Shown here: positions 1 through 16,300 of the stretch, piece by piece
Layout: each line of letters starts with the position of its first letter
How positions within the stretch are numbered: the stretch's first letter is position 1
Source of the DNA: a virus
Taxonomy: Duplodnaviria > Heunggongvirae > Uroviricota > Caudoviricetes
Length of the DNA: 23,274 nt
Direction: 5' to 3' (one strand)
IMG/VR virus record: IMGVR_UViG_2571042372_000002
Position numbers and translations under genes: made by a program
The notes under the pieces: model-generated
The model's input: the letters and a program-made list of their open reading frames with translations, nothing else
What the model was told of the DNA's origin: nothing
Database searches by the model: none

Positions 1-190
1 TTCCGATGAGATGGCGATATACTCGGGCAAAGTATGCTGGCAGTTTTCCAACTGGTCAAAAATACCTGCTCTCGTCTGTTGCAATGCCTGCAGCATGCGG
101 CGGCAATGCGCCTTGCTTTTACTAACCATCTTTCCTTCCTCTATCAGTCGCTGCGTGAACTCATCATGGAATACCAGGTAAATGCGGATG

Positions 191-442
191 TTATCGGTTT
201 TGGCTACGCAGCATAGTACAAAACGGACAGGTGCATCCCGGGACGGGGGAGGCGTCACATGTCCCTGTGATGGTTGTTCCGGGTAATGTACTGTGTGGGG
301 CATAAAAATGTCCGATAATTTTACTTTCTACCGCAGTTAGTTGATTCGTTGGTCCTGGTAGCACATTGGGCGAGGATTTAAATGCCAGGCAACTGAAGGA
401 TGATGTCGCAAGGGAGATAGCGAGAATATTTCTGATTTTCAT
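191..442 (-). CDS. hypothetical small secreted Cys-rich protein (83 aa from the internal ATG of the 191..511 ORF); possible moron upstream of cos
   Basis: ATG at 442-440 (- strand) preceded by AGAGG about 9 nt upstream. N-terminus MKIRNILAISLATSSFSCLAF looks like a Sec signal peptide (basic n-region, hydrophobic core). Mature part is Cys-rich (TGTCDASPVPGCTCPFC). No homolog recognised. Confidence 0.3.
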   Translation of the reverse strand: MKIRNILAISLATSSFSCLAFKSSPNVLPGPTNQLTAVESKIIGHFYAPHSTLPGTTITGTCDASPVPGCTCPFCTMLRSQNR

Positions 443-590
443 TTGATGATGCCTCTGTGTGAAATGACGGTAAACGACGCACTTGTGCCGGCACATAATA
501 GCAAGCACCATAATAGATCAGATTCGATTCTTGCTGTAAGTGATAATTATTCTCGTTTTCGGGTCCTTTCCGTCGATCCAACAGGTTACG

Positions 591-602
591 GGGCGGCGAC
601 CT
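591..602 (+). other. cosN: cosN 12-nt cohesive end sequence GGGCGGCGACCT
   Basis: Exact 12-mer identical to the lambda cohesive end as I recall it, flanked by lambda-like left- and right-end sequence. Confidence 0.8.
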
Positions 603-778
603 CGCGGTTTTTCACTATTTATGAAAATTTTTCAGGGAAAATCGTGTCGGTACTTCTCGAATATAACTTTTTGTTTTTTTTAATATTGCATCCGTAAAGG
701 TCCGACATGAAAGTGTCCGAAAATGCCTTTTTCTGGCGTTTTCATGTCGGGCCTTGTATTTGATAATGGGTTGTTTTC
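603..778 (+). promoter_or_regulatory. cosB: cosB-like terminase (Nu1) binding region with R-element-like repeats and an AT-rich tract
   Basis: 11-bp inverted repeat CCGACATGAAA (702-712) / TTTCATGTCGG (741-751); related GTGTCCGAAAATG (713-725) and GTGTCGG (643-649); AT-rich tract about 655-690 (possible IHF/bend site). Position between cosN and Nu1 mirrors lambda cosB. Confidence 0.6.
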
Positions 779-1327
779 ATGAAGGTTAATAAAAAGAGGC
801 TTGCCGAAATTTTCAACGTGGACCCGCGGACGATTGAACGCTGGCAGTCTCAGGGACTCCCTTGCGCCTCCAAAGGTAGTAAGGGCATTGAATCTGTATT
901 TGATACTGCCATGGCAATTCAGTGGTATGCGCAGAGGGAAACTGATATCGAAAACGAAAAGCTCCGCAAAGAACTGGACGATTTGCGTGCGGCAGCGGAG
1001 TCAGATTTACAACCCGGCACCATTGACTATGAACGCTACCGGCTCACAAAAGCGCAGGCAGATGCGCAGGAACTGAAAAATGCCCGTGAAGACGGAGTAG
1101 TGCTGGAAACTGAACTGTTTACCTTCATTCTGCAACGTGTGGCACAGGAGATTTCGGGGATACTTGTGCGTGTGCCGTTGACATTACAGCGTAAATATCC
1201 GGACATTTCACCATCACACCTTGATGTGGTGAAAACTGAAATCGCGAAAGCCTCCAATGTTGCAGCTAAGGCCGGTGAAAACGTGGGCGGGTGGATCGAT
1301 GATTTCAGACGCGCAGAAGGCAGCTAA
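779..1327 (+). CDS. nu1: terminase small subunit (lambda gpNu1 homolog)
   Basis: 182-aa [15 protein letters not shown]...RTIERWQ...IENEKLR...[27 protein letters not shown] aligns along its length with lambda Nu1 (MEVNKKQLADIF...) as recalled. First gene after cos. Confidence 0.93.
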
Positions 1328-3227
1328 TGCAGCCGGTGCGATAGCTACAGGGCTTTTATCTCTCATTATTCCTGTTCCACTGACGACAGTTCAGTGGGCC
1401 AATAAACATTATTACCTTCCTAAAGAGTCGTCTTATACCCCGGGGCGATGGGAAACACTGCCGTTTCAGGTTGGCATCATGAACTGTATGGGCAACGATC
1501 TGATTCGCACGGTTAACCTGATTAAATCTGCCCGTGTTGGTTATACAAAGATGTTGCTGGGAGTGGAGGCTTATTTTATTGAGCATAAATCACGCAACAG
1601 CCTTCTTTTTCAGCCCACGGACTCAGCTGCTGAAGATTTTATGAAATCTCATGTTGAGCCAACGATAAGGGATGTTCCTGCATTGCTGGAGCTGGCTCCA
1701 TGGTTCGGAAGAAAACACCGCGATAATACGCTCACCCTGAAGCGTTTTTCCTCCGGTGTGGGGTTCTGGTGTCTGGGTGGTGCGGCAGCAAAAAACTACC
1801 GTGAAAAATCCGTGGATGTGGTCTGTTATGACGAGCTTTCCTCGTTCGAACCGGATGTTGAAAAAGAGGGTTCGCCAACCCTGCTGGGGGATAAACGTAT
1901 TGAGGGCTCTGTATGGCCAAAATCCATTCGCGGCTCGACGCCTAAAATCAAAGGCTCCTGCCAGATCGAAAAAGCCGCTAACGAGTCGGCACATTTCATG
2001 CGTTTTTATGTGCCCTGTCCGCACTGTGGGGAGGAGCAGTATCTGAAATTTGGCGATGATGCCTCGCCTTTCGGTCTTAAGTGGGAGAAGAATAAGCCAG
2101 AAAGTGTTTTCTACCTTTGTGAGCATCATGGCTGTGTGATCCATCAGTCTGAGCTTGACCAGAGTAACGGGCGGTGGATCTGTGAAAACACGGGCATGTG
2201 GACTCGTGACGGTCTGACATTTTTCAGCGCCGCGGATAATGAAATTCCGCCGCCGCGCTCCATCACATTCCATATCTGGACGGCGTACAGTCCGTTCACC
2301 ACCTGGGTACAGATTGTCTATGACTGGCTGGATGCACTGAAAGATCCCAACGGCCTGAAAACCTTTGTGAACACCACGCTGGGCGAGACCTGGGAAGAGG
2401 CCGTGGGCGAAAAACTCGATCACCAGGTGCTGATGGATAAGGTTGTGCGTTACACGGCTGCGGTGCCTTCCCGGGTGGTTTATCTGACGGCGGGCATTGA
2501 CTCGCAGCGAAACCGTTTTGAGATGTATGTCTGGGGATGGGCTCCGGGAGAGGAAGCCTTTCTGGTGGATAAAATCATCATTATGGGGCGTCCCGATGAG
2601 GACGAGACGCTGTTACGTGTGGATGTGGCGATCAACAAAAAATACCGCCATGCAGACGGAACCGAAATGACCATTTCCCGTGTCTGCTGGGACACCGGGG
2701 GGATCGATGGCGAAATTGTCTATCAGAGGTCAAAAAAACACGGTGTTTTCCGGGTGCTGCCGGTAAAAGGTGCATCTGTTTATGGCAAGCCGGTGATCAC
2801 CATGCCAAAAACCCGCAATCAGCGGGGCGTGTATCTGTGCGAAGTGGGGACGGACACCGCAAAAGAAATTCTCTATGCCCGTATGAAAGCCGATCCCACG
2901 CCTGCGGATGAAGCCACGTCGTATGCCATCCGTTTTCCTGATGATCCGGAGATTTTTTCGCAGACAGAGGCGCAGCAACTGGTGGCGGAAGAGCTTGTGG
3001 AGAAGTGGGAAAAAGGAAAGATGCGTCTGCTGTGGGATAACAAAAAGCGGCGTAACGAAGCGCTGGACTGCCTGGTGTATGCCTACGCGGCATTACGTGT
3101 GTCCGTGCAACGCTGGCAGCTTGATCTGGCTGTACTGGCAAAATCCCGGGAAGAAGAGACGACCCGGCCAACCCTTAAAGAACTGGCAGCGAAGCTGTCC
3201 GGAGGAGTGAATGGTTACAGTCGCTGA
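1299..3227 (+). CDS. A: terminase large subunit (lambda gpA homolog)
   Basis: Translation ...[23 protein letters not shown]...[20 protein letters not shown]...[14 protein letters not shown]...[10 protein letters not shown]... is collinear with lambda gpA. Start placed at ATG 1299 (MISDAQK...), giving a 29-nt overlap with Nu1 as in lambda; the same ORF is open from ATG 1257, so the start is uncertain. Confidence 0.93.
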
Positions 3228-3417
3228 ACTGCAGGCGCTGCGTCAGGCGCGCCTTGATTTATTAACCGGTAAACGGGTGGTGTCTGTCCAGAAAGATGGT
3301 CGCAGAATTGAATATACGGCAGCTTCTCTGGATGAGCTTAACCGGGCGATCAATGATGCGGAGTCGGTACTGGGGACAACCCGCCGTCGCCGTCGTCCGC
3401 TGGGAGTGAGGTTATGA
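3211..3417 (+). CDS. W: head-tail joining protein (lambda gpW homolog)
   Basis: 68 aa; ...LTGKRVVSVQKDGRRIEYTAASL... matches lambda W (...[23 protein letters not shown]...). GGAGGA SD at 3201-3206; ATGA overlap with B start. Confidence 0.9.
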   Translation: MVTVAELQALRQARLDLLTGKRVVSVQKDGRRIEYTAASLDELNRAINDAESVLGTTRRRRRPLGVRL

Positions 3418-5006
3418 AACGAACGCCTGTCCTGATTGATGTGAACGGCGTTCCGCTTCGTGAGAGTCTCAGCTACAACGGGGGCGGTGCAGGATTTGGC
3501 GGGCAAATGGCTGAGTGGTTGCCACCGGCGCAGAGTGCCGATGCGGCCCTGCTGCCCGCGTTGCGTCTGGGGAATGCCCGGGCAGATGATCTGGTGCGCA
3601 ATAACGGAATAGCGGCTAATGCGGTGGCTCTGCATAAGGATCACATTGTCGGGCATATGTTTCTGATCAGCTACCGTCCGAACTGGCGCTGGCTGGGGAT
3701 GCGGGAGACCGCAGCAAAAAGCTTTGTCGATGAGGTGGAGGCGGCCTGGTCGGAATACGCCGAAGGGATGTTTGGCGAGATCGACGTGGAAGGAAAACGC
3801 ACGTTCACGGAATTTATCCGTGAAGGTGTGGGCGTTCATGCGTTTAACGGCGAAATCTTTGTGCAGCCGGTCTGGGATACGGAAACCACGCAGTTATTCC
3901 GTACGCGTTTTAAAGCCGTGAGTCCGAAACGGGTGGACACGCCTGGACACGGTATGGGGAACCGTTTTCTGCGGGCCGGTGTGGAGGTCGATCGATATGG
4001 CCGTGCCGTCGCGTACCATATCTGTGAGGATGATTTTCCGTTCTCTGGTAGTGGACGATGGGAACGGATCCCGCGTGAACTTCCCACCGGGCGTCCGGCC
4101 ATGCTGCATATTTTCGAGCCGGTGGAGGACGGGCAGACCCGTGGGGCTAATCAGTTTTACAGCGTCATGGAACGGCTGAAGATGCTCGATTCCCTGCAGG
4201 CAACACAGCTTCAGTCGGCCATAGTGAAGGCGATGTATGCAGCGACGATTGAAAGTGAACTTGATACCGAAAAGGCCTTTGAATATATCGCCGGCGCGCC
4301 ACAGGAGCAGAAGGATAATCCGCTTATTAATATTCTGGAGAAGTTTTCCAGCTGGTATGACACGAATAACGTGACACTGGGCGGTGTCAAAATTCCGCAC
4401 CTTTTCCCTGGTGATGATCTGAAACTACAGACTGCGCAGGATTCAGACAATGGATTTTCTGCGCTTGAACAGGCGCTGCTGCGGTATATCGCCGCCGGTC
4501 TTGGCGTTTCCTACGAACAGTTGTCCCGTGATTACTCGAAGGTCAGTTACTCAAGTGCCCGCGCCTCCGCCAATGAGTCGTGGCGCTATTTTATGGGGCG
4601 GCGAAAATTTATTGCGGCCCGGCTGGCCACGCAGATGTTTTCCTGCTGGCTGGAAGAGGCACTTCTTCGGGGGATTATTCGTCCGCCACGGGCACGTTTT
4701 GATTTTTATCAGGCGCGATCAGCCTGGTCACGGGCAGAGTGGATTGGTGCCGGAAGAATGGCCATTGACGGGCTCAAGGAAGTCCAGGAATCAGTGATGC
4801 GCATTGAGGCCGGACTGAGCACGTATGAGAAAGAGCTGGCGCTGATGGGCGAGGATTATCAGGACATTTTCCGCCAGCAGGTCAGGGAATCTGCTGAGCG
4901 GCAAAAAGCCGGACTCTCACGTCCGGTGTGGATAGAGCAGGCGTATCAGCAGCAGATAGCGGAGAGTCGCAGGCCGGAAGAGGAGACAACACCACGTGAG
5001 ACGTAA
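3414..5006 (+). CDS. B: portal protein (lambda gpB homolog)
   Basis: 530 aa, same size class as lambda B (533 aa) and same position. Motifs GGGAGFGGQ, ADDLVRNNG, FNGEIFVQ, GANQFYSVMERLKMLD, SALEQALLRYIAAGLGVSYEQLSR are conserved with lambda B as recalled. Confidence 0.93.
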   Translation: MKRTPVLIDVNGVPLRESLSYNGGGAGFGGQMAEWLPPAQSADAALLPALRLGNARADDLVRNNGIAANAVALHKDHIVGHMFLISYRPNWRWLGMRETAAKSFVDEVEAAWSEYAEGMFGEIDVEGKRTFTEFIREGVGVHAFNGEIFVQPVWDTETTQLFRTRFKAVSPKRVDTPGHGMGNRFLRAGVEVDRYGRAVAYHICEDDFPFSGSGRWERIPRELPTGRPAMLHIFEPVEDGQTRGANQFYSVMERLKMLDSLQATQLQSAIVKAMYAATIESELDTEKAFEYIAGAPQEQKDNPLINILEKFSSWYDTNNVTLGGVKIPHLFPGDDLKLQTAQDSDNGFSALEQALLRYIAAGLGVSYEQLSRDYSKVSYSSARASANESWRYFMGRRKFIAARLATQMFSCWLEEALLRGIIRPPRARFDFYQARSAWSRAEWIGAGRMAIDGLKEVQESVMRIEAGLSTYEKELALMGEDYQDIFRQQVRESAERQKAGLSRPVWIEQAYQQQIAESRRPEEETTPRET

Positions 5007-6501
5007 TCTTTCACACATTATTGCCGCAGCATTCAATGAACCGCTGCTTCTGGAGCCCGCCTATGCGCGGGTTTTCTTTTGCGCGCTCGGGCGCGAGATG
5101 GGGGCAGCAAGTCTTTCGGTACCACAACAGCAGGTACAGTTTGATGCTCCCGGAATGCTGGCTGAAACGGACGAGTACATGGCCGGAGGTAAACGACCGG
5201 CCCGTGTTTACCGGGTGGTGAACGGTATTGCTGTACTGCCGGTGACCGGCACGCTGGTGCACCGGCTGGGTGGTATGCGGCCATTTTCCGGAATGACAGG
5301 CTATGACGGCATTGTCGCCTGTCTTCAGCAGGCAATGGCGGATAGCCAGGTGCGGGGCGTACTGCTGGACATTGACAGTCCGGGCGGGCAGGCCGCCGGC
5401 GCGTTTGACTGCGCTGACATGATTTACCGCCTCCGTCAGCAGAAGCCGGTCTGGGCACTGTGCAATGACACGGCCTGTTCTGCAGCCATGCTGCTGGCGT
5501 CGGCCTGCTCCCGACGGCTGGTTACCCAGACATCCCGTATCGGCTCCATTGGCGTGATGATGAGCCATGTCAGCTATGCCGGTCATCTGGCGCAGGCCGG
5601 TGTGGATATCACGCTGATTTACTCAGGGGCGCACAAGGTGGATGGCAATCAGTTTGAAGCGTTGCCGGCAGAGGTTCGCCAGGACATGCAGCAGCGGATT
5701 GATGCGGCGCGCCGGATGTTTGCCGAAAAAGTGGCGATGTATACCGGTCTGTCTGTTGATGCCGTCACGGGAACAGAGGCTGCCGTTTTTGAAGGTCAGT
5801 CCGGCATTGAGGCCGGGCTGGCGGATGAATTAATCAATGCGTCGGATGCCATCAGTGTGATGGCCACGGCGCTGAACAGTAATGTCAGAGGAGGTACTAT
5901 GCCGCAATTAACTGCAACGGAAGCCGCCGCGCAGGAGAACCAGCGAGTGATGGGGATCCTGACATGCCAGGAAGCGAAAGGACGTGAACAGCTTGCCACG
6001 ATGCTGGCAGGACAACAGGGCATGAGCGTTGAACAGGCCCGGGCGATTCTGGCCGCGGCGGCACCGCAGCAGCCGGTGGCATCCACGCAGAGTGAAGCCG
6101 ATCGCATTATGGTGTGTGAAGAAGCGAACGGTCGTGAACAACTGGCGGCAACGCTGGCGGCGATGCCGGAGATGACGGTGGAAAAAGCCCGCCCGATCCT
6201 GGCTGCTTCACCGCAGGCGGATGCCGGACCATCACTCCGTGATCAGATCATGGCACTGGATGAGGCAAAAGGGGCTGAGGCGCAGGCTGAACAGCTGGCT
6301 GCCTGCCCGGGAATGACAGTGGAGAGCGCCCGGGCTGTGCTGGCTGCGGGATCAGGTAAGGCAGAACCGGTCTCTGCATCCACAACCGCCATGTTTGAAC
6401 ATTTCATGGCGAACCATTCACCGGCAGCGGTACAGGGTGGCGTGGCACAGACGTCAGCAGACGGTGATGCGGACGTGAAAATGCTCATGGCCATGCCATG
6501 A
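4996..6501 (+). CDS. C: head maturation protease / minor capsid protein C (S49 ClpP-like peptidase; lambda gpC homolog), extended C-terminus
   Basis: GTG start at 4996 overlapping the B stop. N-terminal half (FNEPLLLEPAYARVFFCAL, VVNGIAVLPVTGTLV, GAFDCADMIYR, RRLVTQTSRIGSIGVMM, ITLIYSGAHKVDGN) is collinear with lambda C. 501 aa versus 439 aa in lambda, owing to extra repeats in the C-terminal scaffold part. Confidence 0.9.
   Translation: MRRNLSHIIAAAFNEPLLLEPAYARVFFCALGREMGAASLSVPQQQVQFDAPGMLAETDEYMAGGKRPARVYRVVNGIAVLPVTGTLVHRLGGMRPFSGMTGYDGIVACLQQAMADSQVRGVLLDIDSPGGQAAGAFDCADMIYRLRQQKPVWALCNDTACSAAMLLASACSRRLVTQTSRIGSIGVMMSHVSYAGHLAQAGVDITLIYSGAHKVDGNQFEALPAEVRQDMQQRIDAARRMFAEKVAMYTGLSVDAVTGTEAAVFEGQSGIEAGLADELINASDAISVMATALNSNVRGGTMPQLTATEAAAQENQRVMGILTCQEAKGREQLATMLAGQQGMSVEQARAILAAAAPQQPVASTQSEADRIMVCEEANGREQLAATLAAMPEMTVEKARPILAASPQADAGPSLRDQIMALDEAKGAEAQAEQLAACPGMTVESARAVLAAGSGKAEPVSASTTAMFEHFMANHSPAAVQGGVAQTSADGDADVKMLMAMP
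5899..6501 (+). CDS. nu3: scaffolding protein Nu3 (in-frame internal start within C)
   Basis: Perfect AGGAGG (5889-5894) 4 nt upstream of ATG 5899, in frame with C, at the position equivalent to the lambda Nu3 start. Product MPQLTATEAAAQENQRVMGIL... contains the lambda Nu3-like motif (RIMGILNCEEAHGRE... in lambda). Confidence 0.7.
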   Translation: MPQLTATEAAAQENQRVMGILTCQEAKGREQLATMLAGQQGMSVEQARAILAAAAPQQPVASTQSEADRIMVCEEANGREQLAATLAAMPEMTVEKARPILAASPQADAGPSLRDQIMALDEAKGAEAQAEQLAACPGMTVESARAVLAAGSGKAEPVSASTTAMFEHFMANHSPAAVQGGVAQTSADGDADVKMLMAMP

Positions 6502-6537
6502 AGTCAGTGCTGACCATCAATAGGAGGTTTTTACAAT

Positions 6538-6885
6538 ATGGTGACGAAAACCATCACTGAACAGCGTGCGGAAGTACGTATTTTTGCCGGTAATGATCCG
6601 GCTCATACCGCCACAGGCAGCAGCGGGATTTCCTCGCCAACACCGGCACTGACGCCCCTGATGCTGGATGAAGCCACCGGGAAACTGGTGGTCTGGGACG
6701 GACAGAAAGCCGGTAGTGCGGTTGGCATACTGGTACTGCCGCTTGAAGGCACAGAGACGGCGCTGACGTATTACAAGTCGGGAACCTTTGCGACGGAGGC
6801 AATCCACTGGCCTGAAAGTGTGGATGAACACAAAAAGGCCAACGCCTTTGCTGGCAGTGCCCTGAGTCACGCGGCGCTGCCGTAA
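6538..6885 (+). CDS. D: head decoration protein (lambda gpD homolog)
   Basis: 115 aa; NDPAHTATG, TPLMLD, KLVVWDG, AVGIL, TYYKSGTF, KANAFAG match lambda gpD. AGGAGG SD at 6523-6528. Confidence 0.92.
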   Translation: MVTKTITEQRAEVRIFAGNDPAHTATGSSGISSPTPALTPLMLDEATGKLVVWDGQKAGSAVGILVLPLEGTETALTYYKSGTFATEAIHWPESVDEHKKANAFAGSALSHAALP

Positions 6886-6903
6886 CACGTTATCAGGCCA
6901 CCG

Positions 6904-6923
6904 CGGTGGCCTGACTGATTTCT
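6904..6923. repeat. perfect 20-bp palindrome CAGGCCACCGCGGTGGCCTG in the D-E intergenic region (RNA stem-loop candidate)
   Basis: Read directly: the 20-mer equals its own reverse complement. It lies between the D stop (6885) and E start (6943). No T-run follows, so it is not a canonical intrinsic terminator. Confidence 0.5.
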
Positions 6924-6942
6924 GAATGAAAGGAACTGATTT

Positions 6943-7971
6943 ATGGGATTGTTTACGACCCGCCAGTTACTCGGTTATACCGAACAAAAAGTTAAATTTC
7001 GTGCGCTGTTTCTGGAGCTGTTTTTCCGCCGTACGGTGAATTTCCATACCGAAGAGGTGATGCTGGACAAAATTACCGGAAAAACGCCGGTGGCGGCCTA
7101 TGTCTCCCCGGTTGTTGAAGGAAAAGTGCTGCGTCATCGTGGTGGTGAAACCCGCGTGTTGCGTCCGGGCTACGTCAAGCCGAAACACGAATTTAATTAC
7201 CAGCAGGCGGTTGAGCGCCTTCCTGGTGAAGATCCATCTCAACTGAATGATCCGGCTTACCGCCGTCTGCGTATCATTACCGATAACCTCAAACAGGAAG
7301 AGCACGCGATTGTCCAGGTGGAAGAAATGCAGGCGGTAAATGCTGTGTTGTATGGCAAATACACCATGGAAGGAGACCAGTTCGAGAAAATTGAGGTCGA
7401 TTTTGGCAGGTCGACGAAGAATAACATCACTCAGGGTAGTGGTAAGGAGTGGTCAAAACAGGATCGTGACACGTTCGATCCTACACATGATATTGACCTC
7501 TACTGCGACCTGGCCAGCGGTCTTGTGAATATTGCCATTATGGACGGTACCGTCTGGCGTCTTCTGAATGGTTTTAAGCTGTTCCGCGAAAAACTGGATA
7601 CCCGTCGCGGTTCAAATTCTCAACTCGAAACGGCAGTGAAAGATCTGGGCGCAGTGGTGTCCTTCAAGGGGTATTACGGCGATCTGGCCATTGTGGTGGC
7701 GAAAACGTCTTATATAGCAGAAGACGGTATCGAAAAACGTTATCTTCCAGATGGCATGCTGGTTCTGGGGAATACTGCTGCAGATGGGATCCGTTGTTAC
7801 GGTGCCATTCAGGATGCTCAGGCGTTGTCCGAAGGTGTGGTGGCCTCTTCCCGTTATCCGAAACACTGGCTGACGGTAGGGGATCCCGCCCGTGAATTTA
7901 CCATGACGCAGTCCGCGCCGCTGATGGTGTTGCCGGACCCGGATGAGTTTGTGGTGGTACAGGTGAAATAA
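6943..7971 (+). CDS. E: major capsid protein (lambda gpE homolog)
   Basis: 342 aa versus 341 aa in lambda, same position after D. N-terminal region (TTRQLLGYTEQKVKF..LFLELFFRRT) resembles lambda E (MSMYTTAQLLAANEQKFKFDPLFLRLFFRES). Confidence 0.93.
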   Translation: MGLFTTRQLLGYTEQKVKFRALFLELFFRRTVNFHTEEVMLDKITGKTPVAAYVSPVVEGKVLRHRGGETRVLRPGYVKPKHEFNYQQAVERLPGEDPSQLNDPAYRRLRIITDNLKQEEHAIVQVEEMQAVNAVLYGKYTMEGDQFEKIEVDFGRSTKNNITQGSGKEWSKQDRDTFDPTHDIDLYCDLASGLVNIAIMDGTVWRLLNGFKLFREKLDTRRGSNSQLETAVKDLGAVVSFKGYYGDLAIVVAKTSYIAEDGIEKRYLPDGMLVLGNTAADGIRCYGAIQDAQALSEGVVASSRYPKHWLTVGDPAREFTMTQSAPLMVLPDPDEFVVVQVK

Positions 7972-7978
7972 TCCGTGA

Positions 7979-8008
7979 GCGGGGGCGAAATGCCCCCGTG
8001 TCTTTTTT
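7979..8008 (+). terminator. intrinsic-terminator-like hairpin immediately after the major capsid gene
   Basis: CGGGGGC-GAAAT-GCCCCCG (7-bp GC stem) followed by TGTCTTTTTT, starting 8 nt after the E stop and ending before the FI ATG at 8023. Confidence 0.6.
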
Positions 8009-8022
8009 CACAGGGGGCTGAT

Positions 8023-8406
8023 ATGGCAACGAAAGAGCAAAATCTGAAACGTCTTCGTCAACTGGCTGACCTGCTGGGGCGCGAGGCGGATATATCCGGG
8101 AGTGCCGCAGAGATAGCGCAGCGGGTGGCAGAATGGGAAGAGGAGCTTGCTGTTTCCCCGGAGGGCATTATGCACTCTGATGAGAGCGGGGCTGATCAAA
8201 ATCACACAGACGATGGTGAGCAGTTGAACAACACGGATGCTCCGGATGATGTTAAAGCCGTCCGGGTACGGAAGTGCCTGCAAGTAATGGGGTATTGCCC
8301 GGAGACAGGTCGTCCCGTTGAGCTGGCGTTACGGGGTATGCGTGTTCTGGTGCCATCATCACTGGCAACGGCCATGATACAGCACGGAATGGCTGTTTAT
8401 GCGTGA
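8023..8406 (+). CDS. FI: DNA packaging / head assembly protein FI homolog
   Basis: Position between E and FII. Start placed at ATG 8023 with AGGGGG SD, giving 127 aa (about 132 aa in lambda), because the upstream GTG 7975 would put the terminator hairpin inside the coding region. Sequence is diverged from lambda FI; assignment is mainly by synteny and size. Confidence 0.7.
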   Translation: MATKEQNLKRLRQLADLLGREADISGSAAEIAQRVAEWEEELAVSPEGIMHSDESGADQNHTDDGEQLNNTDAPDDVKAVRVRKCLQVMGYCPETGRPVELALRGMRVLVPSSLATAMIQHGMAVYA

Positions 8407-8752
8407 TTTTCAGAATGCCTTTGATGCCGCCCTTGCCGGGGTGGACAGTACGATTGTTGAAGTGATGGGCATCAGTGCGCAGTTCACCTCCGGTGCACAG
8501 CGTGGCGGCGAGGTTCATGGCGTTTTTGACGATCCGGAGTCGCTGGGTTTTGCCAGTAGTGGGATCCGTATTGAAGGAAGTAACCCGTCATTATTTGTGC
8601 TTACGGATACGGTTTGTGCTGTACGGCGTGGTGACACGCTGACCATTAACGGCGAGATGTTCTGGGTGGACCGTGTTTCTCCGGATGACGGAGGGAGTTG
8701 TTATCTCTGGCTCAACCGGGGGCAACCACCTGCAGTTAACCGGCGACGATAA
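8399..8752 (+). CDS. FII: head-tail connector protein FII homolog
   Basis: 117 aa; C-terminal ...RGDTLTINGEMFWVDRVSPDDGGSCYLWLNRGQPPAVNRRR is near-identical to the lambda FII C-terminus as recalled. Overlaps the FI stop. Confidence 0.92.
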   Translation: MRDFQNAFDAALAGVDSTIVEVMGISAQFTSGAQRGGEVHGVFDDPESLGFASSGIRIEGSNPSLFVLTDTVCAVRRGDTLTINGEMFWVDRVSPDDGGSCYLWLNRGQPPAVNRRR

Positions 8753-8767
8753 ACGCAGGGTGAAATT

Positions 8768-9301
8768 ATGGCCATAAAAGGTCTTGAGCAGGCCGTTGAA
8801 AACCTCAGCCGGGTTCGTAAAAACGCCATTCCGGCGGCTTCAGCAATGGCCATTAACCGCGTGGCCACAACGGCGATTAATCAGTCTTCATCACTGGTTG
8901 CCTGTGAGACAAAGGTACGCCGGAAACTGGTAAAGGAAAGGGCCAGGCTGAAAAGGGCCACGGTCAAAAATCCGCAGGCCAGAATCAAAGTTAACCGGGG
9001 GGATTTGCCCGTAATCAGGCTGGGGATCAGGATGCTGGGGCGTCGCCCGAACAGCATACTTAAAGCCGGTCAGCATCGGTATCAGCGGGCGTTTATTCAG
9101 CAACTGAAAAATGGCCGGTGGCATGTCATGCAGCGTGTGGCCGGGAAAAACCGTTACCCCATTGATGTGGTGAAAATCCCGATGGCGGTGCCACTGAAAC
9201 AGGCATTTGATGAGAATGTTGACCGTATACGGCGTGAACGCCTGCCTAAAGAACTGGCATACGCGCTGCAGCATCAACTGAGAATGGTAATAAAGCGATG
9301 A
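8768..9301 (+). CDS. Z: tail completion protein Z homolog
   Basis: 177 aa (192 aa in lambda), at the Z position between FII and U; ATGA-type overlap with U. Confidence 0.85.
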   Translation: MAIKGLEQAVENLSRVRKNAIPAASAMAINRVATTAINQSSSLVACETKVRRKLVKERARLKRATVKNPQARIKVNRGDLPVIRLGIRMLGRRPNSILKAGQHRYQRAFIQQLKNGRWHVMQRVAGKNRYPIDVVKIPMAVPLKQAFDENVDRIRRERLPKELAYALQHQLRMVIKR

Positions 9302-9693
9302 AACATACTGAACTCCGTGCAGCCGTACTGGATGCACTCGAGCAGCATGAACACGGGGCGACGCTGTTTGATGGTCGCCCCGTTGTTTTTGACGAAGAGG
9401 ATTTTCCTGCGATCGCGGTTTATCTCACCGGCGCTGAGTATACCGGTGAAGAGCTGGATGCAGATACCTGGCGGGCCACGCTGCATATTGAAGTTTTCCT
9501 GCCTGCTCAGGTGCCGGATTCAGAGCTGGATTCGTGGATGGAGTCCCGGATTTATCCGGTGATGAGCGATATCCCGGCACTGGCAGGACTGATTACCACG
9601 ATGGTTACGCAGGGCTATGAGTACCGGCGCGACGACGATATGGCGTTATGGAGTTCAGCCGATCTGACTTATGTCATTACCTATGAAATGTGA
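9298..9693 (+). CDS. U: tail terminator protein U homolog
   Basis: 131 aa; [54 protein letters not shown]... is near-identical to lambda gpU. Confidence 0.95.
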
Positions 9694-9700
9694 GGACGAT

Positions 9701-10453
9701 ATGCCAACACCAAATCCCCTTGAGCCGGTAAAAGGTGCCGGGACCACACTGTGGGTTTATAACGGCAAGGGTGATGCTTATGCAAACCCGTTGTCAGACA
9801 ATGACTGGTCGCGTCTGGCAAAAATTAAAGACCTGACGCCCGGCGAACTGACCGCTGAGTCCTATGACGATAACTACCTGGATGATGAAGATGCGGACTG
9901 GACCGCGACCGGGCAGGGGCAGAAATCCGCCGGAGATACCAGCTTCACGCTGGCGTGGATGCCCGGAGAGCAGGGGCAGAAAGGGCTTATAGGCTGGTTT
10001 GAAAGCGGCGATGTCCGTGCCTATAAAATCCGCTTCCCGAACGGCACGGTCGATGTGTTCCGTGGCTGGGTCAGCAGTATCGGTAAGGCGGTGACGGCGA
10101 AGGAAGTGATCACCCGTACGGTGAAGGTCACCAATGTGGGTAAACCTTCTGTAGCGGAAGAACGCAGCAAAATTACGCCGGTCAGTGCGATTAAGGTGAC
10201 GCCGACATCCGGTACGGTGGTGAAAGGGCAGAGCACCACGCTGACCGTGGCCTTCCAGCCGGAGGGCGCAACTGACAAGAGCTTCCGTGCGGTGTCAGCG
10301 GATAAAACAAAAGCCACCATTAGTGTGAAAGATATGACAATCACCGTGAACGGCGTTGCTGCAGGCAAGGTCAACATTCCGGTTGTATCCGGTAATGGTG
10401 AACTTGCTGCGGTTGCAGAAATCACTGTCACCGAAGCGGGCGCTGCAGGGTAA
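9701..10453 (+). CDS. V: major tail protein V homolog (with C-terminal Ig-like domain)
   Basis: Start at ATG 9701 with [27 protein letters not shown]...[20 protein letters not shown]...[31 protein letters not shown] is near-identical to lambda gpV. The ORF track's upstream start at 9671 is less likely. Confidence 0.93.
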
Positions 10454-10466
10454 ACGGAGGTAATAC

Positions 10467-10898
10467 ATGTTCCTGAAAACCGAATCATTTGAACATAACG
10501 GCGTGACCGTCACGCTTTCTGAACTGTCAGCCCTGCAGCGTATTGAGCATCTCGCCCTGATGAAACAGCAGGCAGAACAGGCGGAATCCTGCGGCAACCG
10601 GCAGGTTACTGTGGAAGACGCCATCAGAACCGGTGCTTTTGTGGTGGCGATGTCCCTGTGGCATAACCATCCACAGAAAACGCAGTCACCGTCAATGAAT
10701 GAGGCCGTGATGAAGATAGAGCAGGAAGTGCTTACCACCTGGCCCGCGGATGCCATTGCCCGGGCGGAAAACGTGGTGTACCGGCTGTCCGGTATGATCG
10801 AAGCTGTTCGTCCGGATACTGATATTACTGAAGTGGCGAAAAATAACACGCTGACTGATGATGATTTTTCTGCGGGAAAGTGTTCGACGGTGAGCTGA
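10467..10898 (+). CDS. G: tail assembly chaperone G homolog
   Basis: 143 aa; MFLKTESFEHNGVTVTLSELSALQRIEHLALMK...SAGKCSTVS is near-identical to lambda gpG. GGAGG SD upstream. Confidence 0.95.
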   Translation: MFLKTESFEHNGVTVTLSELSALQRIEHLALMKQQAEQAESCGNRQVTVEDAIRTGAFVVAMSLWHNHPQKTQSPSMNEAVMKIEQEVLTTWPADAIARAENVVYRLSGMIEAVRPDTDITEVAKNNTLTDDDFSAGKCSTVS

Positions 10899-11326
10899 GT
10901 TTTGCCCTGAAACTGGCGCGAGAGATGGGGCGACCTGACTGGCGCGCCATGCTTGCCGGGATGTCATCCACGGAGTATGCCGACTGGCACCGCTTTTACA
11001 GTACCCATTATTTTCATGATGTTCTGCTGGATATGCACTTTTCCGGGCTGACGTACACTGTGCTCAGCCTGTTTTTCAGCGATCCGGATATGCATCCCTC
11101 TGATTTCAGTCTGCTTGTCCCCCGGCATGAGGAAGAGCAGGTGGAGAGGCCGGATGAGGACAAAATGCTGATGCAGAAAGCGGCAGGGCTTACCGGAGGC
11201 GTCCGCTTCGGTGGGGACGGAGGGCGCGATATTTTATCGTCTGCGGATGTGGCGGATGTCATGGTGGATGATGCCGCATTAATGATGGCTTCAGCAGGGA
11301 TCGCGGGAGGAGTCCGGTATGGCTGA
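10467..11326 (+). CDS. T: tail assembly protein G-T fusion (made by -1 frameshift at 10874-10880; T portion is 10880..11326 in the -1 frame)
   Basis: The -1 frame ORF 10880..11326 has no plausible independent start or SD, overlaps the G 3' end, and ends 8 nt into H, as for lambda gpGT. Confidence 0.8.
10874..10880 (+). promoter_or_regulatory. programmed -1 ribosomal frameshift slippery heptamer G GGA AAG (G to G-T fusion)
   Basis: GGGAAAG sits in the X_XXY_YYZ register relative to the G frame (codons GCG GGA AAG TGT give A G K C). The -1 frame is open from 10880 to 11326 and encodes a T-like protein. Same heptamer and position as the lambda G/GT frameshift. Confidence 0.85.
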
Positions 11327-13898
11327 ACCGGTAGGCGATCTGGTCGTTGATTTAAGTCTGGATGCTGTCCGTTTTGATGAGCAGATGAGCCGGGTAAGGC
11401 GTCATTTTTCAGGTCTGGATACCGACGCCAGAAAAACCGCCAGTGCTGTTGAACAGGGCCTGAGCCGCCAGGCGCTGGCTGCACAGAAAGCGGGGATTTC
11501 CGTCGGGCAGTATAAAGCCGCCATGCGTATGCTGCCTGCACAGTTCACCGACGTGGCCACGCAGCTTGCCGGTGGTCAGAATCCCTGGCTGATCCTGCTG
11601 CAACAGGGTGGTCAGGTTAAGGACTCCTTCGGCGGGATGATCCCCATGTTCCGGGGGCTTGCCGGTGCGATCACCCTGCCGATGGTCGGGGCCACCTCGC
11701 TGGCGGTGGCGACCGGTGCGCTGGCGTATGCCTGGTATCAGGGTAACTCAACCCTGTCCGATTTCAACAAAACGCTGGTCCTTTCCGGCAATCAGTCGGG
11801 TCTGACGGCAGATCGTATGCTGGTCCTGTCCAGAGCCGGGCAGGCGGCAGGGCTGACGTTTAACCAGACCAGCGAGTCACTCAGCGCACTGGTTAAGGCG
11901 GGAGTAAGCGGTGAGGCTCAGATTGCATCCATCAGCCAGAGTGTGGCGCGTTTCTCCTCTGCATCCGGCGTGGAGGTGGACAAGGTCGCTGAAGCCTTCG
12001 GGAAGCTGACCACTGACCCGACGTCGGGGCTGACGGCGATGGCGCGCCAGTTCCATAACGTAACGGCGGAGCAGATTGCGTATGTTGCTCAGTTGCAGCG
12101 TTCCGGCGATGAATCCGGGGCATTGCAGGCGGCGAACGAGGCCGCAACGAAAGGGTTTGATGACCAGACCCGACGCCTGAAAGAGAACATGGGCACGCTG
12201 GAAACCTGGGCAGACAGGACAGCACGGGCATTCAAATCCATGTGGGATGCGGTGCTGGATATTGGTCGTCCGGAATCCTCAGCGGATATGCTCGCCAGTG
12301 CGCAGAAGGCATTTGATGAGGCGGATAAAAAATGGCAGTGGTACCAGAGCCGGAGCCAGCGCCGGGGAAAGACCTCCTCTTTTCGTGCGAACCTTCAGGG
12401 GGCATGGGATGATCGTGAAAAGGCCCGTCTGGGTCTGGCAGCGGCCACGCTGCAGTCGGATATGGAAAAAGCCGGTGAACTGGCGGCAAGGGACAGGGCT
12501 GAGCGTGAGTCGTCACGGCTGAAATATACCGAAGAGGCGCAGAAGGCTTACGAACGGCTGCAGACGCCGCTGGAGAAATATACCGCCCGTCAGGAAGAAC
12601 TGAACAAGGCACTGAAAGACGGGAAAATCCTGCAGGCGGATTACAACACGCTGATGGCGGCGGCGAAAAAGGATTATGAAGCGACGCTGAAAAAGCCGAA
12701 ACAGTCCGGCGTGAAGGTGTCTGCGGGCGATCGTCAGGAAGACAGTGCTCATGCTGCTCTGCTGACGCTTCAGGCAGAACTCCGGACGCTGGAGAAGCAT
12801 GCCGGAGCAAATGAGAAAATCAGCCAGCAGCGCCGGGATTTGTGGAAGGCGGAGAGTCAGTTCGCGGTACTGGAGGAGGCCGCCACGAAACGGCAGTTAT
12901 CTGAGCAGGAGAAATCCCTGCTGGCGCATGAAGATGAGACGCTGGAGTACAAACGCCAGCTGGCTGAGCTGGGAGACAAGATTGAACACCAGAAGCGCCT
13001 GAACGAGCTGGCGCAGCAGGCGGATAAATTCGCACAGCAGCAACGGGCAAAACGGGCCGCAATCAGCGCAAAAGCCCGCGGCCTCACCGACCGTCAGGCG
13101 CAGCGGGAGTCGGAAGAGCAGCGCCTTCGTGAGGTGTACGGTGATAATCCGGCTGCGCTGGCGAAGGCCACATCGGCACTGAAAAAGACCTGGGCGGCTG
13201 AAGACCAGCTTCGCGGGAACTGGATGGCAGGCCTGAAGTCCGGCTGGAGTGAGTGGGAAGAGAGCGCCACGGACAGTATGTCGCAGGTAAAAAGTGCAGC
13301 CACGCAGACCTTTGATGGTATTGCGCAGAATATGGCGGCGATGCTGACCGGCAGTGAACAGAACTGGCGCAGCTTCACCCGTTCCGTGCTGTCCATGATG
13401 ACAGAAATTCTGCTTAAGCAGGCAATGGTGGGGATTGTCGGGAGTATCGGCAGCGCTATTGGCGGGGCTGTTGGTGGCGGCGCATCCGCGTCAGGCGGTA
13501 CAGCCATTCAGGCCGCTGCGGCGAAACTCCATTTTGCAACCGGAGGATTTACGGGAACCGGCGGCAAATATGAGCCAGCGGGGATTGTTCACCGTGGTGA
13601 ATTTGTCTTCACGAAGGAGGCAACCAGCCGGATTGGCGTGGGAAATCTCTACCGGCTGATGCGCGGCTATGCCACCGGCGGTTATGTCGGTGGCACCGGA
13701 AGTCCGGCGCAAATGCGGCGTTCAGAGGGTATCAGGTTTGAGCAGAACAACAACGTGGTGATTCAGAACGACGGTACGAATGGTCTGCCAGGTCCACAGA
13801 TGATGAAGGCGGTGTATGACATGGCCCGCAAGGGTGCCCGTGATGAAATCCAGGCACAGATGCGCGATGGTGGTCTGTTCTCCGGAGGTGGACGATGA
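11319..13898 (+). CDS. H: tail tape measure protein H homolog
   Basis: 859 aa (853 aa in lambda). N-terminus MAEPVGDLVVDLSLDAVRFDEQM... and C-terminus ...ARKGARDEIQAQMRDGGLFSGGGR are near-identical to lambda gpH as recalled. Confidence 0.95.
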   Translation: MAEPVGDLVVDLSLDAVRFDEQMSRVRRHFSGLDTDARKTASAVEQGLSRQALAAQKAGISVGQYKAAMRMLPAQFTDVATQLAGGQNPWLILLQQGGQVKDSFGGMIPMFRGLAGAITLPMVGATSLAVATGALAYAWYQGNSTLSDFNKTLVLSGNQSGLTADRMLVLSRAGQAAGLTFNQTSESLSALVKAGVSGEAQIASISQSVARFSSASGVEVDKVAEAFGKLTTDPTSGLTAMARQFHNVTAEQIAYVAQLQRSGDESGALQAANEAATKGFDDQTRRLKENMGTLETWADRTARAFKSMWDAVLDIGRPESSADMLASAQKAFDEADKKWQWYQSRSQRRGKTSSFRANLQGAWDDREKARLGLAAATLQSDMEKAGELAARDRAERESSRLKYTEEAQKAYERLQTPLEKYTARQEELNKALKDGKILQADYNTLMAAAKKDYEATLKKPKQSGVKVSAGDRQEDSAHAALLTLQAELRTLEKHAGANEKISQQRRDLWKAESQFAVLEEAATKRQLSEQEKSLLAHEDETLEYKRQLAELGDKIEHQKRLNELAQQADKFAQQQRAKRAAISAKARGLTDRQAQRESEEQRLREVYGDNPAALAKATSALKKTWAAEDQLRGNWMAGLKSGWSEWEESATDSMSQVKSAATQTFDGIAQNMAAMLTGSEQNWRSFTRSVLSMMTEILLKQAMVGIVGSIGSAIGGAVGGGASASGGTAIQAAAAKLHFATGGFTGTGGKYEPAGIVHRGEFVFTKEATSRIGVGNLYRLMRGYATGGYVGGTGSPAQMRRSEGIRFEQNNNVVIQNDGTNGLPGPQMMKAVYDMARKGARDEIQAQMRDGGLFSGGGR

Positions 13899-14224
13899 AA
13901 ACCTTCCGCTGGAAAGTGAAACCCGGGATGGATGTGACATCGGCTCCTTCCGTCAGGGAGGTGCGCTTTGGTGATGGCTATTCCCAGCGTGCGCCTGCCG
14001 GGCTGAACGCTGACCTGAAAACGTACAGCGTGACGCTGTCTGTCTCCCGTGAGGAGGCCACGGCGCTGGAGTCGTTTCTGGCTGAGCACGGGGGCTGGAA
14101 GGCCTTTCTGTGGACGCCGCCTTATGGTTACAGGCAGATAAAGGTGACCTGCGCAAAATGGTCGTCGCGGGTCAGTATGCTGCGTGTTGAGTTCAGCGCA
14201 GAGTTTGAACAGGTGGTGAACTGA
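13895..14224 (+). CDS. M: minor tail protein M homolog
   Basis: 109 aa, same size as lambda M, immediately after H with ATGA overlap; MKTFRWKVKPGMDV... is lambda-like. Confidence 0.9.
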   Translation: MKTFRWKVKPGMDVTSAPSVREVRFGDGYSQRAPAGLNADLKTYSVTLSVSREEATALESFLAEHGGWKAFLWTPPYGYRQIKVTCAKWSSRVSMLRVEFSAEFEQVVN

Positions 14225-14922
14225 TGCAGGATATCCGGCAGGAAACATTGAATGAATGCACCCGTGCGGAGCAGTCGGCCAGCGTGGTGCTCTGGGAAAT
14301 CGATCTGACAGAGGTCGGTGGAGAACGTTATTTTTTCTGTAATGAGCAGAACGAAAAAGGTGAGCCGGTCACCTGGCAGGGGCGACAGTATCAGCCGTAT
14401 CCCATTCAGGGGAGTAGTTTTGAACTGAATGGCAAAGGCACCAGTACGCGCCCCACGCTGACGGTTTCTAACCTGTACGGTATGGTCACCGGGATGGTGG
14501 AAGATCTGCAGAGTCTGGTCGGCGGAACGGTGGTCAGGCGTAAGGTTTACGCCCGTTTTCTGGATGCGGTGAACTTCGTCAACGGAAACAGCGACGCCGA
14601 TCCGGAGCAGGAGGTGATCAGCCGCTGGCGCATCGAGCAGTGCAGCGAACTGAGTGCGGTCAGTGCCTCCTTTGTACTGTCCACACCGACGGAAACGGAT
14701 GGTGCCGTTTTTCCGGGGCGCATCATGCTGGCTAATACCTGCACCTGGACCTATCGCGGTGATGAGTGCGGTTATCACGGTCCGGCGGTCGCGGATGAAT
14801 ATGATCAGCCGACTTCCGATATCACGAAGGATAAATGCAGCAAATGCCTGAGCGGCTGTAAGTTTCGCAATAACGTCGGCAACTTTGGCGGCTTCCTTTC
14901 CATTAACAAACTTTCGCAGTAA
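14224..14922 (+). CDS. L: minor tail protein L homolog
   Basis: 232 aa, same size and position as lambda L; Cys-rich C-terminal segment (CTWTYRGDECGYHG...CSKCLSGCKF) as in lambda L. Confidence 0.9.
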   Translation: MQDIRQETLNECTRAEQSASVVLWEIDLTEVGGERYFFCNEQNEKGEPVTWQGRQYQPYPIQGSSFELNGKGTSTRPTLTVSNLYGMVTGMVEDLQSLVGGTVVRRKVYARFLDAVNFVNGNSDADPEQEVISRWRIEQCSELSAVSASFVLSTPTETDGAVFPGRIMLANTCTWTYRGDECGYHGPAVADEYDQPTSDITKDKCSKCLSGCKFRNNVGNFGGFLSINKLSQ

Positions 14923-14927
14923 ATCCC

Positions 14928-15671
14928 ATGACAGAGACAGAATCAGCGATTCTGGCGCATGCCCGGCGATGTGCGCCAGCGGAGTCGTGCGGCTTCGTGG
15001 TGAGAGCGCCGGAGGGGGAAAGATATTTTCCCTGCGTGAATATCTCCGGTGAGCCGGAGGCGTATTTCCGGATGGCTCCGGAGGACTGGCTGCAGGCAGA
15101 GATGCAGGGTGAGATTGTGGCGCTGGTCCACAGTCATCCCGGTGGTCTGCCCTGGCTGAGTGAGGCCGACCGGCGGCTGCAGGTGCAGAGTGATTTGCCG
15201 TGGTGGCTGGTCTGCCGGGGGGCGATTCATAAGTTCCGCTGTGTGCCGCATCTCACCGGGCGGCGCTTTGAGCACGGGGTGACGGACTGTTACACGCTGT
15301 TCCGGGACGCTTACCATCTGGCGGGGATTGAGATGCCGGACTTTCATCGTGAGGATGACTGGTGGCGTAACGGCCAGAATCTCTATCTTGATAATCTGGA
15401 GGCCACAGGGCTGTATCAGGTGCCGTTGTCAGCGGCGCAGCCGGGCGATGTGCTGCTGTGCTGCTTTGGTTCATCGGTGCCGAATCATGCCGCTATTTAC
15501 TGTGGTGACGGCGAGCTGCTGCACCATATTCCTGAACAACTGAGTAAACGAGAGAGGTATACCGACAAATGGCAGCGACGCACACACTCCCTCTGGCGTC
15601 ACCGGGCATGGCGCGCATCTGCCTTTACGGGGATTTACAACGATTTGGCCGCCGCATCGACCTTCGTGTGA
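14928..15671 (+). CDS. K: tail tip assembly protein K homolog (JAMM/MPN plus NlpC/P60-like)
   Basis: The C-terminal 199 aa from M49 (nt 15072) match the lambda K protein as I recall its annotation. The full ORF adds 48 N-terminal residues. JAMM-type motif HSHPGGLPWLSEAD (HxHx7Sx2D) is at 15129-15170. Overlaps I by 103 nt as in lambda. Confidence 0.88.
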   Translation: MTETESAILAHARRCAPAESCGFVVRAPEGERYFPCVNISGEPEAYFRMAPEDWLQAEMQGEIVALVHSHPGGLPWLSEADRRLQVQSDLPWWLVCRGAIHKFRCVPHLTGRRFEHGVTDCYTLFRDAYHLAGIEMPDFHREDDWWRNGQNLYLDNLEATGLYQVPLSAAQPGDVLLCCFGSSVPNHAAIYCGDGELLHHIPEQLSKRERYTDKWQRRTHSLWRHRAWRASAFTGIYNDLAAASTFV

Positions 15672-16240
15672 AAACGGGGGCTGAAGCCATCCGCGCACTG
15701 GCCACACAGCTCCCGGTGTTTCGTCAGAAACTGAGCGACGGCTGGTATCAGGTACGGATTGCCGGGCGGGACGTCAGCACGTCCGGGTTAACGGCGCAGT
15801 TACATGAGACTCTGCCTGATGGCGCTGTGATTCATATTGTTCCCAGAGTCGCCGGGGCCAAGTCAGGTGGCGTATTCCAGATTGTCCTGGGGGCTGCCGC
15901 CATTGCCGGATCATTCTTTACCGCCGGAGCCACCCTTGCAGCATGGGGGGCAGCCATTGGGGCCGGTGGTATGACCGGCATCCTGTTTTCTCTCGGTGCC
16001 AGTATGGTGCTCGGTGGTGTGGCGCAGATGCTGGCACCGAAAGCCAGAACTCCCCGTACACAGACAACGGATAACGGCAAACAGAACACCTATTTCTCCT
16101 CACTGGATAACATGGTTGCCCAGGGCAATGTTCTGCCGGTTCTGTACGGTGAAATGCGCGTGGGGTCACGCGTGGTTTCTCAGGAGATCAGCACGGCAGA
16201 CGAAGGGGATGGTGGTCAGGTTGTGGTGATTGGTCGCTGA
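15569..16240 (+). CDS. I: tail tip assembly protein I homolog
   Basis: 223 aa; MAATHTLPLASPGMARICLYGDLQRFGRRIDLRVKTGAEAIRALATQLP... is near-identical to lambda gpI. Confidence 0.93.
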   Translation: MAATHTLPLASPGMARICLYGDLQRFGRRIDLRVKTGAEAIRALATQLPVFRQKLSDGWYQVRIAGRDVSTSGLTAQLHETLPDGAVIHIVPRVAGAKSGGVFQIVLGAAAIAGSFFTAGATLAAWGAAIGAGGMTGILFSLGASMVLGGVAQMLAPKARTPRTQTTDNGKQNTYFSSLDNMVAQGNVLPVLYGEMRVGSRVVSQEISTADEGDGGQVVVIGR

Positions 16241-16258
16241 TGCAAAATGTTTTATGTG

Positions 16259-16284
16259 AAACCGCCTCCGGGCGGTTTTATCGT
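16259..16284 (+). terminator. terminator-like hairpin between I and J
   Basis: AAACCGCC-TCCG-GGCGGTTT (8-bp stem) followed by TATCGTTTAT, in the 60-nt I-J intergenic region, 17 nt upstream of the J ATG. Confidence 0.45.
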
Positions 16285-16300
16285 TTATGGAGCATGAGGA

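Follow-up and report, generated by a model that had tools for sequence, protein, structure and literature searches.

The window, by which we mean the whole stretch of 23,274 nucleotides analysed here, contains a cos site (555–778) followed by the genes for the two terminase subunits and by head and tail genes. The subsites and genes are arranged as listed below, with subsite coordinates carried over from two independent annotations of phage 21, M81255 (offset +424) and OL657228 (left end, offset +590).

560–571: R4 box of an older annotation, spanning cosQ (M81255 R4, 136–147)
561–567, + strand: cosQ, GGGTCCT, the packaging-termination subsite (OL657228 cosQ, 42902–42908); the aligned lambda sequence is the same
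591–602, + strand: cosN, the 12-bp cohesive-end sequence, with predicted nicks at 590/591 (top strand) and 602/603 (bottom strand)
620–634, + strand: I2, an IHF-type site between cosN and cosB, conserved with lambda (M81255 196–210)
640–655, + strand: cosB R3, AATCGTGTCGGTACTT, a TerS binding box (M81255 216–231, OL657228 50–65)
662–676, − strand: cosB I1, the IHF bending site between R3 and R2 (M81255 238–252, OL657228 74–86)
697–712, − strand: cosB R2, AAGGTCCGACATGAAA (TTTCATGTCGGACCTT on the − strand; M81255 273–288, OL657228 107–122)
740–755, + strand: cosB R1, TTTCATGTCGGGCCTT (M81255 316–331, OL657228 150–166)
762–776, + strand: I0, IHF-like, overlapping the gene 1 ribosome binding site at 768–771 (M81255 338–352 and 344–347, respectively)
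779–1327, + strand: gene 1, terminase small subunit (TerS-21, Nu1 family), the R-box reader; 182 codons, the product identical to phage 21 gp1 at 182/182 residues
1299–3227, + strand: gene 2, terminase large subunit (predicted cosN nuclease and packaging ATPase); 642 aa, full length
3211–8752, + strand: head genes W, B (portal), C/Nu3, D (shp), E, FI and FII, all open
8768–21902, + strand: tail genes Z, U, V, G/T, H, M, L, K, I, J and side tail fibre, all open and with collinear full-length matches

The cosN sequence GGGCGGCGACCT has a single exact match in the window, at 591–602 on the + strand, with 0.02 matches expected by chance from dinucleotide-preserving shuffles; exact matching was used because a 12-mer search that allows two mismatches is uninformative, 2.8 chance matches being expected. 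This 12-mer is identical in lambda and phage 21, so that cosN is unaltered, and an earlier sequence-only reading was right to see an intact cos of the lambda family. When window 500–800 is compared with phage records by blastn, the phage 21 cos in M81255.1 is identical at 301/301 positions (E = 1e-152), and the same 301 bp are found at 100% identity in PhiR57_1 and PhiR63_2, two phages deposited as complete genomes with ECOR13 as the listed host. PhiR57_1 reaches 800/800 identity and ev017 matches window 600–800 at 100% identity; in the same search lambda matches only window 535–699 (query 36–200), at 78%.

The flanks of the site agree equally well with phage 21. Window 1–590 is identical at 590/590 positions to the right end of this phage (OL657228 42342–42931, the last 590 bases), window 591–8144 is 99.5% identical to its left end (the first 7554 bases), and base 1 of the virion-DNA records OL657228, X02501 and M23775 corresponds to window 591. 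Because the right end of phage 21 thus gives way to its left end between 590 and 591, the two ends are genuinely joined in the window, in the order of a prophage, circle or concatemer, as the sequence-only reading had proposed; the nick position that it gave, 590/591, is the one expected for the top strand, and the bottom-strand nick is predicted at 602/603.

Judged by its sequence, the segment 555–778 is cos-21 and belongs to an E. coli lambdoid prophage of the phage 21 type. The cos site of phage 21 was sequenced and characterised long ago (GenBank X02501, M81255; Feiss laboratory), and the copy described here, which reproduces the experimentally characterised site to the base, is already known biology and carries no novelty. 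The same 224 bp occur at ≥99% identity in 265 complete E. coli replicon records; together with the perfect agreement with the characterised site over 301 bp and with PhiR57_1 over 800 positions, and with the very low number of exact 12-mers expected by chance, this leaves practically no probability that the segment is a fortuitous or decayed, non-functional cos-like sequence, and on these identity data a chance or degenerate site can be excluded.

The organisation of the subsites is that of a complete cos. The conserved 7-bp cosQ lies ~30 bp upstream of cosN, and a complex cosB is present, consisting of three R boxes, of which R2 is inverted relative to R3 and R1, and of an IHF site between R3 and R2. 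All three boxes are 100% identical to the phage 21 R boxes in M81255 and OL657228. I1 includes AAACAAAAAGTTA on the − strand at 664–676, one mismatch away from the IHF consensus WATCAANNNNTTR, and I0 includes a one-mismatch version of the same consensus at 764–776, also on the − strand. R1 shares 15/16 positions with the reverse complement of R2 and 11/16 with R3, and a core, TCNTGTCGG, is common to R3, R2 (as its reverse complement) and R1. The 11-bp inverted repeat noticed earlier, CCGACATGAAA at 702–712 and TTTCATGTCGG at 740–750, is present exactly as stated and does lie just upstream of the Nu1-type gene, which starts at 779; in the light of the phage 21 annotations, it is the core of the R2/R1 pair of TerS binding boxes. 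The two repeats also belong to a longer palindrome and form the cores of its 27-nt arms (697–723 and 729–755), which are 81% complementary.

This R2–R1 palindrome runs through the spacer between the boxes and, as RNA, would form a hairpin of ~26 bp immediately before the ribosome binding site of gene 1; a comparable palindrome of different sequence exists in lambda. The hairpin's predicted folding energy of −35.5 kcal/mol (z = −8.05, with 0/200 shuffles folding as well), the flagging of 732–751 as terminator-like by a simple scan, and the 27-nt arms, which reach beyond the 16-bp R boxes, would all suit an element that acts mainly at the RNA level, that is a late-transcript hairpin or terminator-like control of gene 1 operating instead of, or besides, binding boxes. 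We nevertheless consider such a role very improbable: any binding motif present in two inverted copies automatically gives a hairpin; R3, which lies 42 bp upstream of R2, has the same core and no palindromic partner; late transcription is Q-antiterminated; and the hairpin has no credible Rfam match, a scan of 1–1400 (E ≤ 1) returning two irrelevant sub-threshold hits (to a Bacillus sRNA and a miRNA, ~21–23 bits against gathering thresholds of 55–60). Furthermore, the R3-I1-R2-R1 layout is also found in lambda, where the boxes have another sequence, and co-varies with the TerS recognition helix (PMC4669245, PMC9026076). We thus retain the interpretation of the palindrome as a pair of TerS binding boxes. 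In a promoter/terminator scan, cosN and the R1 arm appeared terminator-like and 739–767 promoter-like; these calls were not used, their counts being near shuffle expectation.

Comparison with the two reference phages defines the type of the site. Relative to phage 21 (M81255, X02501, OL657228), there is no difference inside cos: cosQ, cosN, I2, R3, I1, R2, R1, I0 and the start of gene 1 are identical, and TerS and the right-end/left-end flanks are the same. Relative to lambda, the architecture, the cosQ heptamer and the 12-nt cosN are the same and I2 is near-identical; R3 is also equally spaced from cosN (bp 50–65; PMC9026076). The R boxes, by contrast, differ at most positions (R3 is CGTTTCCGTTCTTCTT in lambda and AATCGTGTCGGTACTT here), and the lambda R-box sequences are not present at this cosB. 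The alignment to lambda cos is split in the same way, with 73/84 identities over the lambda-like cosQ–cosN–I2 portion (552–634) and 77/145 over the diverged cosB (635–778). The term lambda-type, under which the site had first been described, is therefore apt for its family and wrong for its specificity, the R boxes and the TerS recognition domain being those of phage 21.

This distinction bears on packaging. Despite a common cosQ and cosN, lambda and phage 21 each package their own DNA >1000-fold better than that of the other (Feiss et al. 2015, PMC4669245), and this discrimination resides in the R-box sequences and in the recognition helix of TerS (PMC4669245; PMC9026076). With both of these elements present here in their 21 versions, the site should be used by a 21-specific terminase and only poorly by that of lambda. 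How such a site works has been established for phage 21 and lambda, and its application here is drawn from sequence identity. IHF would bend the DNA at I1 and so allow R3 and the inverted R2 to be bound by a dimer of TerS-21 winged-helix domains, R1 serving as an accessory site; the docked TerS would anchor TerL, which would nick cosN 12 bp apart, at 590/591 on the top and 602/603 on the bottom strand. The terminase would then stay on the cosB end and dock on the portal, the DNA would be translocated rightward, through gene 1 towards the tail genes, and the terminating cut at the next cos would be directed by cosQ and cosN.

A near-identical cosQ and cosN are also found in enterobacterial PICIs (EcCI elements; PMC9026076), which depend on lambda-like TerS and TerL, including the TerS-21 of CFT073 prophage 4 (PMC9026076). 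The PICI cos is without the R3-I1-R2-R1 cosB and is followed by rpp, whereas the site described here has a full 21-type cosB, followed by terminase and structural genes.

A further arrangement is seen in five E. coli prophage loci (L011–L015; ~9236–9500, equivalent to window 535–800), in which a lambda-type right end is fused to a 21-type cosB and gene 1. The mosaic boundary in these prophages lies just left of cosQ, and the same TerL protein occurs in both prophage groups. As their homology to the window starts at 535, cosQ and cosN lie in sequence common to both right-end types, beside the mosaic boundary. In one of the five, L015, the portal gene is split into products of 442 aa and 82 aa.

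Downstream of cos, the terminase genes appear intact. The gene 1 product matches Pfam Phage_Nu1 with E = 1.9e-81, and TerL, with 98.6% identity to its phage 21 counterpart gp2, contains GpA_ATPase and GpA_nuclease domains; exactly this TerL protein is widespread in public assemblies, occurring in 196 index blocks of the assembly collection. The head genes give full-length tblastn matches at 98–100% identity to phage 21, FI (50%) excepted. In the tail region, the G/T slippery heptamer GGGAAAG is found at 10874 and the T frame is open (10880–11326). Altogether, 23/23 phage 21 left-arm proteins compared by tblastn, a set that spans gp1 to the side tail fibre plus two small downstream ORFs and leaves out the G–T fusion, have full-length, collinear counterparts without frame interruptions, which agrees with the apparently complete head and tail gene set of the sequence-only reading.

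The main departure from phage 21 within these genes is a block at 8144–12513, covering FI, Z, U, V, G, T and the N-terminal part of H, which has ~90% nucleotide identity and an allele set unlike that of phage 21. FI is 127 aa long here, with 50% protein identity to its phage 21 counterpart, and Z has 177 aa compared with 192 aa in phage 21. The lengths of FI, Z, U and G are those found in PhiR12_1, a phage with E. coli K-12 MG1655 as listed host; a lesion in the shorter Z was considered and rejected on the grounds that the PhiR12_1 Z gene is equally long, at 177 aa. Among the phages and complete E. coli genomes searched, no match to the block exceeds ~90% over its full length. Its open frames, and lengths matching those of PhiR12_1, lead us to read the block as a mosaic exchange and not as decay; the same open frames and matching lengths suggest that it would be compatible with the 21-type head genes. 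All facts on the PhiR (ECOR-derived) phages come from their GenBank records, which describe them as complete phage genomes and list a host, and a literature search for the source paper of these phages found nothing relevant. Overall, these data suggest a functional cos site together with functional packaging and virion genes.

The sequence beyond the window leads to a different assessment of the prophage as a whole. Scaffold L017 (GCA_000522365.1, KI929792.1), retrieved via the exact TerL protein, is 100% identical to window 1–13227 and is almost certainly the source scaffold of the window, position 1 of which lies exactly where a run of 2338 N in L017 (6365–8702) ends. Where L017 has these 2338 N, its relatives have 1105 bp (the rest of bor/iss and a TonB C-terminal-domain gene); the L017 gap may hold ~1.2 kb of extra sequence, possibly another copy of an IS. 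Upstream of the gap, L017 first shows genes for a cI-type repressor (cut at the locus end), cro and cII. Gene O is cut after codon 148; in phage 21 coordinates the break is at nt 36062, which leaves 9 bp after the fourth ori iteron (36034–36052). At L017 1365–2671, ~6–7 kb upstream of window position 1, lies a 1.3-kb IS3-family element (IS629/IS1203-like) with an orfA of 108 aa and an orfB of 295 aa, and it is directly followed by a quuD-type Q, an ompC-like porin gene, S21/R21/Rz-type lysis genes and bor. Holin, endolysin, Rz, Q, cro and cII are all present in L017.

The extent of the loss is apparent from the icd-integrated prophage of ATCC 11775, which matches the L017 prophage sequence upstream of the gap at 99.9%, has an identical 224-bp cos and retains O, P, ren and all genes from ninB through ylcG. 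Compared with this intact prophage, L017 lacks 3704 bp: O has lost its C-terminal half and ori its right side, P and ren are gone, and so is the nin region from ninB through rusA and ylcG, up to Q. The link between the window and the IS in L017 crosses the 2338-N scaffold gap, and L010 and the complete genome FDAARGOS_1301 (L020) have the same arrangement on contiguous sequence. Both of these carry the same O′::IS junction, and the O remnant of FDAARGOS_1301 is annotated by PGAP as 'replication protein, incomplete, missing C-terminus'. The genes int and xis and the pL operon are seen only in two relatives, L019 and L020, and neither the left prophage arm (int, xis, N) nor attR was seen for the source strain.

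A fully viable, inducible phage 21-like prophage, able to excise, replicate and package itself from this cos, would fit the identity of the site with the cos of deposited phage genomes, the uninterrupted full-length matches of all 23 compared left-arm proteins, and the existence of close relatives with a complete gene set including O and P, such as the ATCC 11775 icd prophage. It is nonetheless improbable, because in L017 the IS takes the place of the 3704-bp segment that runs from the middle of O through P, ren and the nin region, right ori flank included, so that neither a functional ori nor the O and P functions that replication requires are available, and because the loss of the ori flank would be a defect in cis, beyond rescue by O and P from another prophage. 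Judging from lambda biology, the loss of O, of P and of the right flank of the iterons would abolish phage replication both in cis and in trans, and the prophage is very probably replication-defective.

Replication and packaging are connected through the substrate of the terminase, as the upstream cos initiates and the downstream cos terminates packaging on the same molecule (PMC4669245; PMC9026076). A single prophage that does not replicate would form no concatemers and would thus be without the normal two-cos packaging substrate. When the replication of lambda is blocked, low-level packaging is still possible if recombination makes dimers; for this reason, 'defective' is to be taken here as strongly impaired and not necessarily as zero. 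The expectation that the prophage could be packaging-competent, and not a decayed remnant, consequently stands for what lies within the window, where cos, terminase and the 23 compared proteins look intact, and falls for the replication module, which is lost outside it.

We therefore have high confidence in a joint reading in which a cos-21 site, an apparently intact terminase and apparently intact compared head and tail genes belong to a prophage whose replication module was destroyed by an IS3-family insertion and a 3.7-kb deletion. Taken as a whole, the prophage has decayed in part and keeps its packaging and virion module intact; it is very probably unable to propagate alone, and so not a self-sufficient phage. 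From its sequence, the packaging and virion module is probably a working one that could be expressed if late transcription were triggered, and the cos site should still be recognised by a 21-specific terminase, whether made by the prophage itself, should its late genes be expressed, or supplied by a superinfecting 21-type phage. Outside the cos site, the prophage differs from phage 21 in the replaced FI-to-H allele block, in a different immunity and Q region, and in the IS-mediated deletion of replication and nin genes.

Cryptic lambdoid elements that keep a cos and a Nu1 homologue are found in E. coli K-12, for example DLP12 (nohD) and Qin (nohA). Remnants of this kind share with the present element a 21-like late region before cos and the inability to grow alone, the late-region likeness being based on a quuD-type Q, an ompC/nmpC-like porin, essD/rrrD/rzpD-type lysis genes and bor/iss. 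They differ in that most of their head and tail genes are lost, whereas the full packaging and virion module is present here and only the replication and nin segment is gone.

The site carries little weight as a discovery, and its practical value is for annotation: it fixes the predicted ends of the virion genome at 590/591 and 602/603 and assigns a packaging specificity of the 21 and not of the lambda type. The locus also illustrates that an intact cos and a complete set of structural genes do not amount to a viable prophage, since decay here lies outside the window, in the replication module. An intact TerS-21/TerL module could still matter for the mobilisation of satellites (PICIs) and for recombination with superinfecting lambdoid phages. 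It is less easily believed, and in our estimate unlikely, that cos-21, terminase and the virion module are conserved by selection in the host lineage, for example for roles as a PICI helper or in packaging in situ. In the former case, the resident prophage would act as a helper that packages PICI-type satellites, a possibility that arises from the reported binding of Rpp proteins to the TerS-21 of a CFT073 prophage (PMC9026076); in the latter, in-situ packaging from this cos would mobilise the adjacent sitABCD genes and the flanking chromosome.

Most of the 224-bp cos segment is found in 627/5426 complete E. coli genomes (~12%). For the whole window, no complete RefSeq E. coli genome matches better than ~98% identity. 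Prophages of the 21-like type that are integrated at icd and carry sitABCD are common in the complete genomes searched, including those of avian-pathogenic and urinary isolates, and one relative, NC-SV, has been described (PMC12803456).

The sequence on either side of the packaging and virion genes shows some additional features. The part of the window upstream of cos (1–590) has conflicting annotations, with a 60-aa ORF at 34–216 (+ strand) according to PGAP and the phage 21 record and − strand ORFs in RAST-type annotations; an unannotated 83-aa ORF at 191–442 on the − strand starts MKIRNILAISLATSSFSC, is cysteine-rich and has a putative signal peptide by eye. None of the three competing small ORFs upstream of cos has a Pfam match. 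At the other end of the window, the 3′ part of sitD occupies 22575–23274 on the − strand, the sitABCD iron/manganese ABC transporter being a moron downstream of the side tail fibre genes; its placement is the same in phage 21 (OL657228) and in icd prophages of other E. coli in the complete-genome collection. In the close relative FDAARGOS_1301 (L020), the two small ORFs that follow the side tail fibre gene are separated by a second copy of the IS found in O (4082–5295 of the locus), and the fibre gene itself is fragmented (5626–7686); the window counterparts of these two loci are intact, at 21899–22483 and 19842–21902, respectively.
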